Positions 3,056-7,917 of a DNA stretch of 64,000 nucleotides are shown in pieces; the first letter of the stretch is position 1, and each line of letters opens with the position of its first letter. The notes beneath the pieces were generated by a model. It searched no databases. It was not told the DNA's origin and was given only the letters and a program-made list of their open reading frames with translations. Location of the stretch: the NCBI GenBank assembly GCA_963808715.1, contig CAWEHG010000015.1:8732-72731 (forward strand), in the 5' to 3' direction. Made by a program: the position numbers and the translations under genes. This DNA is from Ignavibacteriota bacterium (GTDB lineage Bacteria; Bacteroidota; Ignavibacteria; UBA10030; UBA6906).

Positions 3056-4099
3056 ATGTCTCGGGCGAGACAGCACACGGGGATCCACGGGTCACGGTCC
3101 AGGGGCGAGCGGGTGGTCGCCGCCATCGTCATCGCTCTGCTCTGGCCGGCGTCTGCGCTCGGGCAGGGCTACGACGATACGTTCGAGATGAGGAGCAAGC
3201 TGAAGCTCGAGCTGCAGTACGCGGACTACAGCCAGTACGAATACCCGGAGCCGATCCTCTTCGGTTATGGCGTCGGTCCCTATACCCAGAACGAACCCTA
3301 CATCGTCAACTTCCCCGAGTGGCGGGCGCTGGTCAAGTACACGCGCCTTTTCGGCCCGCGGACGGCGGTGAGCCTCAAATACCAGTTCTCGGATCTCAAG
3401 ACGGGCATCGCCGGTCATTACCTCGAAGGGAAGGTGACCCGCAACCTGAGCGATCCGGTGATCGGTCTCCTTTCGGGGGCGTACCTGTACGATTCCCGCG
3501 GCTTCGGTGCCTTCCAGGGGGGAGCGGGGCTCTCCTGGGAGATCAGCCCGATCACGCTGGTCCAGGTGGACGGGCAGTACTACCACCGCGGACCGGAGGC
3601 GGTTCCCCTCGGCGGAGAGATGGGTTCGCTGAACCTCCGGCTGAAATTCCGACAGGTCCTCACGCTCTCCACGGCGTTCTTCGCGGAATACAGCTACTAC
3701 AACGCGAACGGCGATGCGATCTCATTCCTCTCGCACAATCTGTCGCTCTGGCTCAGCCAGTACCTCCCCACAGAGACGGCCGTGCACTTCAACGTCCGAC
3801 TGTACACGAACACCGCCGGCATCAGGTCGATCTGCCCGTCGGTGGAGATCGGACAGTACCTGAACTGGGCGACCGTGCTTCTGCTCAAGTTCCGGTATTA
3901 CCAGAACGAGAGCGACAACGTCAGTCTCGGCGAGCAGGGAGTGATCATCCCCGACGGCCTGATCTCCAGGACGCTCAGCGCACAGGTGAACCGCGATATG
4001 TCGGCGACCCTTCTGATGTACCTCAAGTACCGGTACTACAAGAGCAACCTCGGCGTGGCGATGCATACGTACATGCTCGGCGGCGTATGGTCATTCTAG
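3056..4099 (+). CDS. putative outer-membrane beta-barrel protein, family not recognised
   Basis: ORF 3056..4099. Signal peptide ..VVAAIVIALLWPASALGQG; Tyr-rich alternating strand pattern; C-terminus ..HTYMLGGVWSF with terminal Phe, typical of OM barrels. Confidence 0.6.
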   Translation: MSRARQHTGIHGSRSRGERVVAAIVIALLWPASALGQGYDDTFEMRSKLKLELQYADYSQYEYPEPILFGYGVGPYTQNEPYIVNFPEWRALVKYTRLFGPRTAVSLKYQFSDLKTGIAGHYLEGKVTRNLSDPVIGLLSGAYLYDSRGFGAFQGGAGLSWEISPITLVQVDGQYYHRGPEAVPLGGEMGSLNLRLKFRQVLTLSTAFFAEYSYYNANGDAISFLSHNLSLWLSQYLPTETAVHFNVRLYTNTAGIRSICPSVEIGQYLNWATVLLLKFRYYQNESDNVSLGEQGVIIPDGLISRTLSAQVNRDMSATLLMYLKYRYYKSNLGVAMHTYMLGGVWSF

Positions 4100-4911
4100 T
4101 GAAGCAAAAACACCGGCGGCCCGATCGGCGACTCCGAGGCCTTCTCAACTCACCGGGGTTCCTGGCGGCCGTGGTCTTGACCCTCGCGGGATGCGGCAGC
4201 CCGCCGGAGCCGTTCCCGCCCCCGGATTCGGGTGCGATCCGGGTGAGCGCATTCTCCAGCGCCCCGATCGATTCGGTGTTGGTCCATCTGGACGACCTGG
4301 CCCAGGGTGTTTTTGCGAATCCGTGCACCCTCCGGTCGGTGGTAGCCGGGACCCACAAGCTTACGGTCGTCGACAGCACGGGCGCCCGGACGGATACGAT
4401 GGTCTCCGTTCGAAAGGACGAACTGACCTCGACCGCGGTCCGGCTCACCAGGATCGGTCCATACGTGGGGAACGAGGCGCCGGACTTCGCGGTGAAGGAT
4501 ATCGACGGTCGACAGTTCTCGCTCGGCGCCCAGAGGGGCCGGGTGGTTTTCGTCTCCTTCTTTGAATACACCTGAGCGACGTGCATCACGACGGAGTTTC
4601 CGTCGTTCCAGTACGGGATCTACATCCGGCAGGACACCGCGAAGTTCCGGATGATCGCGTTCGAGAACCTGTCGTCCACGGCATGGCTGAAGAGCTACCG
4701 CAGCTCCAAGGGGATCACCTATCCGATGGTGCTGGATTCCCTTGGCCAGGTGTTCTCCCCGTATCGTGTGGATCCGTGTACGGGAACGTCGTGCCGACAT
4801 GCATCCTTGTGGACAAGAAGGGGCATAGTGCGTTTTGGAGCGACAATCAGTTCGAATATGGTGCTCGTGCTGTCTGACAAGATCACCGAACTGCTGTCTG
4901 AACCACCATAG
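4087..4911 (+). CDS. TlpA/redoxin-like lipoprotein, candidate selenoprotein (T-U-A-T-C; Sec codon TGA 4573-4575), two frame breaks as sequenced
   Basis: ATG 4087 (frame of ORF 3319..4575): MVILVKQKHRRPDRR..VVLTLAGC lipobox. ..NEAPDFAVKDIDGRQFSLGAQRGRVVFVSFFEYT-TGA-ATC-ITTEFPSF..; the same frame resumes in ORF 4651..4911. The C-half ..GITYPMVLDSLGQVFSPYRV / VPTCILVDKKGHSAFW (ORF 4581..4877 frame) / VLVLSDKITELL needs frame changes near 4768 and 4855. Confidence 0.6.
4588..4606 (+). promoter_or_regulatory. candidate bacterial SECIS hairpin downstream of TGA 4573-4575
   Basis: ACGACGG-AGUUU-CCGUCGU: perfect 7-bp stem, 5-nt loop with G at loop position 2. Stem starts 12 nt after the TGA; loop starts 19 nt after it. 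Confidence 0.55.
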
Positions 4912-4950
4912 GCCGGATTGCGCTATTCCGGCAGAGATGGGAGGGCTGTC

Positions 4951-7251
4951 ATGAGCATTTGCGAAGCGTCTACTCGCCGAGGGTTTGTGTGGGTGGTATG
5001 GATTTGTTTGGCGGCGTCGACCGCAGTGGGTCAATGGAAATACATCGGTCCGGATGGAGGCGCTCTGGGGGCTATGGCGGGTCACCCCACTGATGCGAAT
5101 GTGGTGTATGTGGTATCCGCTGCCGACTACTCTACAAAACTCCTCAAGTCGGCAGACAAGGGATTGTCTTGGTATCAACTGGGAATTGTGGGTGCTCCAT
5201 AGGATGTCCTCCTCGTGGATTGGTCAAACCCCGCTCTCATGTACACTTGCGGCTATGCAGGACTTAGGAAGACGACCAACGAAGGGGTGACCTGGGCCAC
5301 CGTGAGTCTCCCCACGCGCAACTACCTGCAGACGATCACCCTTGACCCGCAGAGTGTCAGCACGATTCACGGTGCCGGGTACTATTACGATACGGCCGCG
5401 ATAGGGCTCTACGCGAGAAGTACGAATGGGGGAACGAGCTGGAGCACGAAGCTTCTGACCTCCCGCCGTTCGTACATGTATTGCGTGACGGTGGCACCCA
5501 CCAATACGCAGATGGTGTTCGTCGGGGGGTATGACGTGGATTCGCTCACGTTCGCTCATTGGCAAACTAATGCGAAGTACGAACGGTGGCTCAAGTTTTT
5601 CGGATTGCACGGGTCCAATGAGTGGGACGGTGAACCATGTTCTCTGCGATCCCCTAACGGCTGGCAAGGTCTACGCCGCCTGCAACGAGGGGGTATACCG
5701 GAGTACCGATTGGGGAACGACCTGGACCATGAACAGTGGGATCGTGCTCTATCCCCAACGATTATCCATATGCCCAGCGAACACGGCCGTCCTCCTGGCC
5801 GCTACGTGGACTACGGCATCTACCGAAGTACCAATGGAGGATCATCGTGGGAGGCTGTTACCTCCGGGATGCCCAGTGCTCATCCCAAAGCTGTCCTGAT
5901 CGAACCAGGGAACCCCTCGGTAATGTACGCGGCAACGACCGCTGGGTTCTGCCGGAGCACGAACGGTGGGGGACAGTGGGTGTGGTCCTCCCGGCGCATC
6001 CGGGCGGCGAGCGTAAGCACGCTGGCGTTTGCTCGTCGAACCGTTCGCGAGTCTATGCGGGAATCGAGCCTGATGGGGTATTCAAGACGTCCCGGTGCTC
6101 TCGGCATGGGAACGGTTGCGTGGCAGCCCACGGGATGATTCATCTCATGCAGGAATACCGTGCCTGGGGTGGTGGTGTCCATGTCCAATGCTGATTCGGT
6201 CTTCGTCCTTGAAGGGGGTGGCCTCTAAGCAACCCGGCGACGCTCCACGTGAGCGGAGGTGGCGGGGCCACCTGGACCGATGTTCCGGCAGTGTTGCAGG
6301 ATGGAGCAGCCCTGGTGTGGGGACAGGGTCTCTTTCAAGCAGGTTCGTACTACGATCCTGAAAAAGGAATCCGCCAAATCGCTGTGGCGCGGAGCACAAA
6401 TCGAGGGCACAATTGGGTCACGACTGTTCTCGCTCAGAACTCTTCTGGATACGCAACGTGTCTCAACTTCAGGGCGGACAATCCGTCTGTCGGGTATCTT
6501 TCCGGCTACTACTATGACAGCGCATGGTATTCGCACGGCAAGATCTTCAGGACAACCAATGGCGGTCTGTCTTGGGGAGAGATCGGGAATTCAGTCTTTG
6601 ATACGGGAAAACGCCCCGTGCTGGCGATTGTGCCTGATCCTGCCAACCCAAACCGCCTCCTATCAGGAACGTACAATGGGGTCTACTTCACTAGTACCGA
6701 TGCCGGGAGTACGTGGAATTCGCCGGTCCAGTCCTTCAGGGCCATGTGCATCACAGAGGACAAAACTGTGGCCGGGAGGTTCTGGGTTGGCACCGACAAC
6801 GCGGGCGTCTGGACTACAACGAACAGTGGGAGTAGTTGGCAACAACTGAACACCGGTCTGCCGACATCAAACATCCTTTCTATCGTTCACGATCCCGTAA
6901 GCCGCGTATTGTATGCGGGGACCAAAGGCGAAGGTGTCTTTCGCCTTGACCTTCCTACGGGGGTGGAACGAGAGCCGGGCGCTTCTTTACGAGTTCGCGT
7001 TGGATCAGAACTATCCAAATCCCTTCAACTCGACCTCCACAATAGGATTTCGAATCCCAGCAGATGATCACGTGAAGTTGACCGTGTTCGATCTTCTCGG
7101 GAGGGAGGTGACCGTGCTGGTAGACGAGCCGAAAAGTCCCGGTCAGTACCAGGTGCAGATGGACACAGGGAGGCTTGCCAGTGGAGTGTATGTTCTCCGA
7201 CTGACGTCCGGCACAAGGACTCAGACGCGGACGTTGATCTTGGTTCGCTGA
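4951..7251 (+). pseudogene. BNR/Ycf48-like beta-propeller repeat protein with T9SS C-terminal sorting domain (fragmented as sequenced)
   Basis: Stitched from ORFs 4918..5202, 5215..6138, 5531..5899, 5736..6194, 6095..6361, 6249..7067 and 6913..7251. Signal peptide MSICEASTRRGFVWVVWICLAASTAVGQ. Blades STNGGTSW, STNGGSSF, STDWGTTW, STNGGSSW, TTNGGLSW, STDAGSTW, TTNSGSSW. C-terminus ALDQNYPNPFNSTSTIGF..GVYVLRL..LILVR. In-frame TAG 5200-5202 plus at least six frame changes. Confidence 0.7.
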
Positions 7252-7293
7252 TTGTTGTTTGTAGCGAGAAGAACCCACACCATCGAAGGGCGC

Positions 7294-7829
7294 ATGCGTA
7301 AGAGAATGATCTTTACGTTTTGGTCATTGTGGTGCTACATGCTCACGCTGCCTTGGGGCAAGAGGGACTCAGGGCCGGGGTGAAAGCGCCGGACTTCTCG
7401 CTCGCGACGGTGCAGGAGCAGGTCGTTTCGCTGAAGGATGCGGTCGCCAAGGGGACGGTCATCCTTCACTTCTGGAAGTCGAAGTGAAGGGAGTGCCAGG
7501 CGGAGTTTCCGCCTCTCAAGAAGATCGCCGAGGAGTTCAGGGACGTCCGGGTCCTCTCCATCAACCCGATCGACATGGCCGGGCGGGTGCGGTCCGACGC
7601 AGAGAATTTCGAGCTTCCCTATGAGGTGCTGGTGGGGAGGGATTCCGATATCATCGAAACGTATCAGATCTTCAAGCTTCCACGCATCATCGTCATCGCG
7701 CGGGGCGGCACCATTTCCTACACGGAACGGTACGCGCCGTACGACAAACTCAAAGAAGAGGTGAACAAAGCGAGAGCCCAGAAAACCCCATCGATCGAAG
7801 TAGGGTCGCTGTTGAGATGTCATGGGTGA
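7294..7829 (+). CDS. TlpA/redoxin-like secreted protein, candidate selenoprotein (K-U-R-E-C; Sec codon TGA 7485-7487)
   Basis: Frame 0: ..LVIVVLHAHAALGQEGLRAGVKAPDFSLATVQEQVVSLKDAVAKGTVILHFWKSK-TGA-REC-QAEFPPLKKIAEEF.. runs into ORF 7575..7829 (..FELPYEVLVGRDSDIIETYQIFKLPRIIVIARGG..). N-terminus uncertain: ATG 7294 (MRKRMIFTFW, frame 1) needs a 1-nt shift in T-run 7318-7321, or TTG 7320 starts directly. Track ORF 7335..7823(-) is an antisense shadow. Confidence 0.65.
7498..7514 (+). promoter_or_regulatory. candidate bacterial SECIS hairpin downstream of TGA 7485-7487
   Basis: AGGCGG-AGUUU-CCGCCU: perfect 6-bp stem and the same AGUUU loop as the 4588..4606 hairpin. Stem starts 10 nt after the TGA; loop starts 16 nt after it. 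Confidence 0.55.
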
Positions 7830-7865: not shown

Positions 7866-7892
7866 AAAAGGCCCCGGACTACGGGGCCTTTT
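7866..7892. terminator. bidirectional intrinsic terminator
   Basis: AAAAGGCCCCG-GACUA-CGGGGCCUUUU: perfect 11-bp stem with a 5' A-tract and 3' U-tract, between convergent stops at 7829(+) and 7918(-). Confidence 0.8.
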
Positions 7893-7917
7893 CTGTCAAC
7901 AGCATGAGTGCCGGATC

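Follow-up and report, generated by a model that had tools for sequence, protein, structure and literature searches.

In-frame UGA codons followed by SECIS-like hairpins in two redoxin genes of an Ignavibacteriota bacterium

Redoxin genes with in-frame UGA codons

A stretch of 64 000 nt from an Ignavibacteriota bacterium (assembly GCA_963808715.1, contig CAWEHG010000015.1, here C15), referred to below as the window, contains two redoxin genes, each with an in-frame UGA codon that is followed within a few codons by an RNA hairpin resembling a selenocysteine insertion sequence (SECIS). The window begins at C15:8732, and positions without a prefix are those of the window. Gene 1 (4087–4911, + strand) encodes a lipoprotein with the lipobox LTLAGC, an N-terminal domain of about 110 aa and a TlpA/ResA-like redoxin domain with the active site U-A-T-C, in which U denotes selenocysteine (Sec). 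Gene 2 (7294–7829, + strand) encodes a small secreted TlpA/ResA-like redoxin with the active site U-R-E-C and terminates at a true stop UGA (7827–7829). Export signals, read by eye, consisted of the lipobox in gene 1 and a signal peptide in the orthologs of gene 2. Both proteins matched the Pfam families AhpC-TSA (1.8e-11, 44.5 bits for gene 1; 1.7e-16, 60.7 bits for gene 2) and Redoxin (3e-6, 27.5 bits and 1.2e-11, 45.1 bits, respectively) above the gathering cut-offs. No NCBIfam model reached its cut-off for either protein, the best being ResA (NF002854) with 47–64 bits against a required 170, and WAxxUGC_long scored 17 against 300. The two genes are distant paralogs with 23 % identity and an hhalign probability of 95 %.

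The in-frame UGA codons lie at 4573–4575 (site 1) and 7485–7487 (site 2), both on the + strand. Each is very probably read as Sec and forms the first position of the UxxC motif of its gene, and both frames are continuous around the UGA when TGA is translated as U. The codons occupy the place of the first Cys in the CxxC(xx)ExP signature of TlpA/ResA-type thiol-disulfide oxidoreductases, the signatures being U-A-T-C-ITT-E-F-P in gene 1 and U-R-E-C-QA-E-F-P in gene 2.

The copies of both genes in the window show frame breaks. Alignment with orthologs placed two compensating breaks in gene 1, near 4771 and 4826 and about 55 nt apart. In gene 2, the frame with the UGA opens at a TTG at 7320; the ATG of the signal peptide (7294) lies in another frame, probably due to an indel near the T-run at 7316–7319. 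These breaks are most likely homopolymer-type assembly indels; the metagenome-assembled genome (MAG) is error-prone and was rated 61.8 % ‘complete’ at 4.2 Mb.

Hairpins downstream of the UGA codons

Hairpin 1 (4588–4606, + strand) consists of ACGACGG (4588–4594), the loop AGUUU (4595–4599) and CCGUCGU (4600–4606), forming a 7-bp stem with a conserved core of 6 bp (4589–4594 with 4600–4605). Hairpin 2 (7498–7514, + strand) has a 6-bp stem of AGGCGG (7498–7503) and CCGCCU (7509–7514) around the same loop, AGUUU (7504–7508). Counted outwards from the loop, the pairs are G-C, G-C, C-G, A-U, G-C, C-G and a seventh A-U at site 1, and G-C, G-C, C-G, G-C, G-C, A-U at site 2. The stem starts 12 nt from the UGA at site 1 and 10 nt from it at site 2, and the distance from UGA to loop is 19 and 16 nt, respectively. 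This 3-nt difference in spacing arises because the C-to-E interval of gene 1 is longer by one residue.

A preliminary description of this DNA had reported the identical loops and the first six stem pairs of each site, and both reappeared when the coordinates were re-derived. Its observation that both bases are changed in two of the pairs (4 and 6) without loss of pairing, with different encoded residues (TTEFPS versus QAEFPP), also holds. Since the genes are distant paralogs, however, the compensatory differences between site 1 and site 2 are not by themselves clean evolutionary events, and it is the comparisons within each family that carry weight.

Folded alone, hairpin 1 has an energy of −11.5 kcal/mol (z −4.0, equalled by 0 of 200 shuffles) and hairpin 2 of −11.1 to −12.8 kcal/mol (z −2.1, with 8 of 200 shuffles equalling −12.8). 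Folding energy by itself is weak evidence here, as is to be expected in a genome with a G+C content of 63.7 %. Across the genome, 219 of 110 458 TGA triplets (0.20 %) are followed by at least six Watson–Crick pairs enclosing a 5-nt loop that starts 16–19 nt downstream. When the two genes were recoded synonymously according to genome codon usage, an equally long stem in register was kept in 2.3 % of trials at site 1 and 1.4 % at site 2. The codons UUU and CCU are rare in this genome, each accounting for about 10 % of Phe or Pro codons, yet both are fixed in the hairpin.

Conservation of the UGA codons in relatives

Apart from the present genome, only G229, G441 and G444 had orthologs of the two genes in six-frame whole-genome searches that covered 401 genomes from the phylum and all 68 from the family; in these three the genes are syntenic, and each has a single in-frame TGA, placed at the corresponding codon. 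Scans of metagenomes and genomes together with protein look-ups added the loci L049, L050, L052, L053, L054, L056, L059, L060 and L061. Orthologs of gene 1 with the same UGA were present in G229, G444, G441, L049, L050, L054 and L056. The distinct sequences numbered 8 of the gene-1 type and 12 of the gene-2 type; TGA was present in 20 of 20, as was a hairpin of 5–7 bp in the same register. Every close relative therefore retains both the UGA and the hairpin.

No Cys-form ortholog was detected among 5.8 billion proteins or 1.84 billion representatives, which returned only UGA-split fragments or proteins with TGA read as Trp. Among Cys-type proteins, the closest are ordinary TlpA proteins with at most 38 % identity. 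Public gene calls either split the genes at the UGA, giving fragments of 64–150 aa labelled ‘hypothetical protein’, or translate the UGA as Trp, and the public annotation of this selenoprotein family is thus one of systematic mis-annotation. Entries of the latter kind, with the motif HFWKSK-W-xEC, were seen among the public proteins P0001, P0002, P0014 and P0046.

These data bear on whether the UGA codons could be real stops, in decaying pseudogenes, split genes or assembly errors, with hairpins that have no role in decoding. Such an explanation is in keeping with the many frame breaks of the MAG, which affect both redoxin genes and the gene between them, and with public gene callers splitting the genes at this codon. 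The same TGA codon nevertheless recurs in all 20 distinct sequences, which come from independent genomes and metagenomes, with coding conserved on both sides, and several of the relatives’ sequences derive from intact, 100 %-complete genomes. The UGA also falls exactly at the catalytic Cys position, and the genes co-occur with Sec machinery (see below). Real stops are hardly conceivable on this evidence.

Stem covariation and frozen synonymous sites

Stem sequences vary within the gene-1 family: ACGACGG/CCGUCGU in the window and L049, CAGACGG/CCGUCUG in G229, and GGACGG/CCGUCC in G444, G441 and L050, so that pair 6 of the core is C-G, A-U or G-C depending on the ortholog. In gene 1 of L054 this place is taken by a longer stem of quite different sequence (AUGGAGGUG...UACC-A-UCCAU), encoding M-E-V-E-I-P-S-M. 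Within the gene-2 family, 9 of 12 sequences share CAGGCGGAGUUUCCGCCU without any change, even at synonymous sites; CCG-UCU, a change from G-C to G-U, is seen in two others, and gene 2 of L054 has AUGCGG-AGUUC-CCGCAU, a double change from G-C to U-A.

Covariation was assessed in an alignment of 14 distinct 25-nt segments. Of the cells in this alignment, 87.8 % were paired, and double changes occurred in five of seven pairs; 0 of 500 shuffles reached the observed values. Pairing fell to 39–60 % when the 3′ arm was slid by 1–3 nt. The conserved core is 6 bp because the seventh, outermost pair forms in only 3 of 14 segments. RNAalifold recovered the same helix de novo in the gene-1 family and in the gene-2 family. 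The covariation proposed earlier from two sites is therefore also present in a larger alignment.

Synonymous variation was examined for gene 2 in 11 sequences with 47–75 % protein identity over a 100-codon window. In the hairpin codons (CAG GCG GAG UUU CCG CCU), 0 of 312 same-residue pairs differed in codon, against 49 % elsewhere. Among invariant residues with degenerate codons, the columns were codon-invariant in 5 of 5 cases within the hairpin and 1 of 26 outside (Fisher P=3.5e-5). In the seven sequences of the gene-1 family, the sole synonymous variation in the hairpin is in the Ser codon (UCG, UCU or UCC), the third base of which is matched one-to-one by the second base of codon +5, the fifth codon after the UGA, on the other arm (ACG, CAG or UGG, encoding Thr, Gln or Trp). 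A synonymous base that tracks a non-synonymous base across the loop indicates an RNA helix and is not predicted by protein constraint. With hairpin synonymous sites frozen or compensatory and flanking sites varying freely, the suggestion of a conserved RNA element, rather than of protein constraint alone, is upheld.

Comparison with cysteine-type genes

The controls consisted of 24 TlpA-like genes of the phylum with the motif CxxCxx[ES]xP and the four nearest Cys-type homologs, which come from high-G+C Polyangia; the Cys-type paralogs of the genome itself are too few for G+C-matched controls. As no Cys-form ortholog was found, these controls are more distant homologs and not orthologs. The 24 genes of the phylum had 0–3 bp in register, including those carrying E-x-P, and the four Polyangia homologs had 1–2 bp. 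Mean stem length was 6.1 bp in Sec-type and 0.75 bp in Cys-type genes (Mann–Whitney P=2e-9). In all, the 28 Cys-type genes had at most 3 bp in register, within a comparison limited to distant Cys homologs.

The preliminary description had itself raised the concern that the E-F-P codons in the loop and inner stem might be constrained by the protein. In its full form, this explanation makes the hairpins a by-product: the codons for x-T/A-E-F/L-P-S/P happen to be self-complementary, and there is no selection at the RNA level. E-x-P after CxxC is indeed conserved in many Cys-type TlpA/ResA homologs, the loop and first pair consist of those codons, and a chance hairpin occurs at E-L-P-Q-L codons in one Cys-type TlpA. 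The overlap of the loop and innermost pair with conserved codons therefore stands; what protein constraint leaves unexplained is the synonymous freezing. Hairpin synonymous sites are invariant or compensated, whereas 49–54 % of same-residue pairs elsewhere differ in codon; the rare codons UUU and CCU are fixed; only 1.4–2.3 % of synonymous recodings keep the stem; Cys-type genes do not form the stem in register; and L054 keeps a hairpin with different residues. The synonymous-site test largely refutes protein constraint as the sole cause, and we regard it as extremely unlikely.

Selenocysteine machinery and the genomic island

The genome contains a tRNA-Sec (69.6 bits, anticodon tca), SelA and SelB. 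The selD gene adjoins tRNA-Sec on its upstream side (C15:1–1967 in this genome; 10172–11440 of locus L062), so that selD and tRNA-Sec lie 7–8 kb upstream of the window. As far as genes can show, the organism decodes Sec. Among the 68 genomes of the family, SelA is present in exactly four, which are the four with genes 1 and 2.

Machinery genes adjoin the redoxin genes in G229, G444, G441 and the contig of the window. The island of G229 (L062, corresponding to G229:C4:1330500–1350400) extends over about 16 kb and contains, in order on one strand, selA, selB, a gene for an HGD-D-like protein (a 2-hydroxyacyl-CoA-dehydratase-like D-component), a BcrAD/BadFG-type ATPase gene, selD and tRNA-Sec. 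These are followed by genes for two type IX secretion system (T9SS) proteins on the other strand, a 369-aa protein, gene 1, two BNR/Sortilin-T9SS genes and gene 2. The same neighbourhood occurs in G444 (G444:C9:5112–16496) and G441 (G441:C190), with islands of about 12–16 kb. The HGD-D-like gene and the activator ATPase gene are wedged between selB and selD (L062 11412–13512).

The selD gene is itself a selenoprotein gene and carries a UGA (...YAACAG-U-AGK...), with a 6–7-bp hairpin 21 nt downstream and a loop of AGGCU or AGGUU. Its stem covaries among G000, G229 and G444 through a compensatory change from U-A to G-C. Three unrelated genes of the island thus share a common design, a G+C stem and a pentaloop A-G-[U/G]-N-N placed 16–21 nt after the UGA. 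Because of this shared design, the A-G-U of the redoxin loops can be read as a recognition feature and not just as the tail of a Glu codon.

Structural selection alone does not name a function, and both redoxins are exported. The hairpins might accordingly have been selected for a purpose other than Sec decoding, for example a translational pause that helps the protein to be exported or its redox centre to fold, or mRNA stability, with read-through of the UGA by other means. The position 16–19 nt after the UGA, the loop G at position 2 followed by U, and the stem length and energy fit the bacterial SECIS (bSECIS) consensus exactly, however. A like hairpin follows the UGA of selD, whose product is cytoplasmic, and no such conserved hairpin was detected in exported Cys-type TlpA genes. 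We consider a role unconnected with Sec very unlikely.

Contig C21 (28.5 kb) of the same assembly is 82–92 % identical to parts of C35 (C35:303667–317858) and C15 (C15:1–1967). The sole assembled copies of selA and selB are on this contig, as is a second tRNA-Sec identical at 93 of 95 positions. A true duplication of tRNA-Sec was rejected, since C21 is a diverged copy of parts of those two contigs, and most likely represents a second strain in the bin.

Scans for further selenoproteins used TGA-joined open reading frames filtered on G+C content at third codon positions (427 candidates) and searches for a hairpin plus UGA. These genome-wide scans yielded nothing credible beyond the two redoxins among hundreds of noisy candidates, and selD was found only via the annotation of the island.

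Genes between and beyond the redoxin genes

The redoxin genes of the window are separated by one or more BNR/Sortilin-type beta-propeller genes with a T9SS C-terminal sorting domain (4950–7252, + strand), which are split over several frames here, most likely through assembly indels as well. The intact syntenic genes of relatives match Sortilin-Vps10, BNR and Por_Secre_tail. In L049 (3588–4480), the closest metagenomic relative, and in L054 (342–1008), the most distant, genes 1 and 2 are immediate neighbours, and intervening BNR/T9SS genes are absent. It would seem from this gene order that the redoxin genes were ancestrally paired and that the propeller genes were inserted afterwards.

No hairpin comparable to those of the in-frame UGA codons was present within 16–37 nt downstream of the stop UGA of gene 2. 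At about 7868–7895, a G+C-rich stem (GGCCCCG-GACUA-CGGGGCC) with a T-run resembles an intrinsic terminator; it was not listed by the consensus scan.

Interpretation

Both hairpins are very probably bacterial SECIS elements, and genes 1 and 2 very probably encode exported TlpA/ResA-like oxidoreductases with Sec in place of the attacking cysteine (UxxC). Several observations weigh against this interpretation. In a 48-nt context the folding z-scores are unimpressive (−1.8 at site 1 and 0.0 at site 2), so that the comparison with shuffled controls, as called for in the preliminary description, favours the isolated hairpins and is weak beyond them. No Rfam match was obtained, with none at the gathering score in the window and none relevant at E≤10 in 4400–7700. 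The loop and innermost pair overlap the conserved E-[F/L]-P codons, and sequence conservation is to that extent driven by the protein. The Polyangia Cys-type TlpA mentioned above has a 6-bp palindrome at its E-L-P-Q-L codons, in another register and with the loop CCG, and because of this chance hairpin the presence of a hairpin alone is not diagnostic; that hairpin is without the loop G and is broken by synonymous changes in close relatives. The family sequences are related, so the pair counts are not independent and correspond to an estimated six to eight independent compensatory events. Finally, the window copies carry frame breaks, and intactness of the genes is therefore not demonstrable from this assembly.

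We infer by analogy that SelB binds the hairpins and that Sec is inserted at both UGA codons. As described for SelB of Escherichia coli, Moorella and Aquifex, a ribosome that has reached the UGA would have the 6–7-bp G+C-rich hairpin at its mRNA entrance, with the loop 5′-A-G-U-U-N-3′ starting 16–19 nt past the UGA. SelB would bind the hairpin through its C-terminal winged-helix domains and, competing with release factor 2, would bring Sec-tRNA(Sec) to the UGA. The element consists of codons for x-[T/A]-E-[F/L]-P-[S/P], and because it lies within the reading frame, selection would act on codon choice and flanking residues to keep the helix.

The arrangement of these genes tentatively suggests a compact Sec island of 12–16 kb that is gained or lost as a unit, the Sec trait being kept mainly for two exported, obligate-Sec redoxins without a Cys counterpart; we put this forward as a possibility that falls somewhat short of being probable. 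The tight linkage and perfect co-occurrence of Sec machinery and client genes provide a useful case for the gain and loss of the Sec trait. The annotation of Ignavibacteria-type genomes can be corrected for two selenoprotein genes that are now split at the UGA or mis-read with Trp. The likely SelB recognition motif of the lineage is a 6–7-bp G+C stem with a loop of A-G-[U/G]-N-N, 16–21 nt after the UGA. The gene-1 family also offers a clean natural example of an in-frame RNA signal shaping the choice of codons and even of residues, as seen in the third base of Ser against Thr, Gln or Trp.

Comparison with known SECIS elements and selenoproteins

The bSECIS consensus of Zhang and Gladyshev (in PMC13188914) comprises an apical loop of 3–9 nt on an upper stem of 4–16 bp, a G at loop position 1 or 2, usually as N-G-[G/U]-N-N, a distance of 16–37 nt from UGA to loop and a minimum free energy of at most −7.5 kcal/mol (PMC13188914). 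Both hairpins resemble such elements in lying within the reading frame directly after an in-frame UGA that aligns with the Cys of homologs. Their 5-nt loops and G+C-rich stems of 7 and 6 bp agree with the loop and stem criteria, as do the spacings of 19 and 16 nt and the energies below −7.5 kcal/mol. The loop has G at position 2 followed by U, with AGUUG or AGUUC in relatives; in gene 1 of L054 the loop is AGAUA or GAGA, with the G kept and A as the next base. Further points of likeness are the presence of tRNA-Sec, SelA, SelB and SelD in the genome and the compensatory changes in orthologs. Another description, of a 6–8-bp stem and a conserved G some 20 nt downstream of the UGA, bound by winged-helix domains 3–4 of SelB at the mRNA entrance (PMC4605307), also fits both hairpins.

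There are differences from known elements. In sequence, the hairpins do not resemble the E. coli elements (the prototypes of fdhF and fdnG), and they lack a bulged U. They are short, without a conserved lower stem, and site 2 is at the lower limit of spacing. The SECIS of selD in the same genomes has a similar 6–7-bp G+C-rich stem, a 5-nt loop starting with A-G and covariation, and presumably the same SelB reads all of them. It differs from the redoxin hairpins in its loop (AGGYU versus AGUUN), its closing pair (C-G versus G-C) and its codons, which encode P-A-R-L-A-G.

At the protein level, selenoproteins with a UxxC motif have already been catalogued for the AhpC-TSA, Redoxin and TlpA (cd02966) folds. 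The two redoxins share with these the TlpA/AhpC-TSA/Redoxin fold and Sec for the first Cys of CxxC, and were predicted by the same logic of Cys/Sec pairs. They differ in forming two subfamilies of Ignavibacteria-type Bacteroidota, and gene 1 in having an additional lipoprotein N-terminal domain and a C-to-E interval longer by one residue. According to a review, nearly all selenoproteins have Cys homologs, whereas only distant ones were found here. As no NCBIfam cut-off was reached, no Rfam family matched and UxxC folds are already catalogued, the redoxins are best described as new subfamilies and their hairpins as new examples of SECIS elements, both of a well-known kind, and the accepted picture of bacterial Sec decoding is unchanged by these findings.

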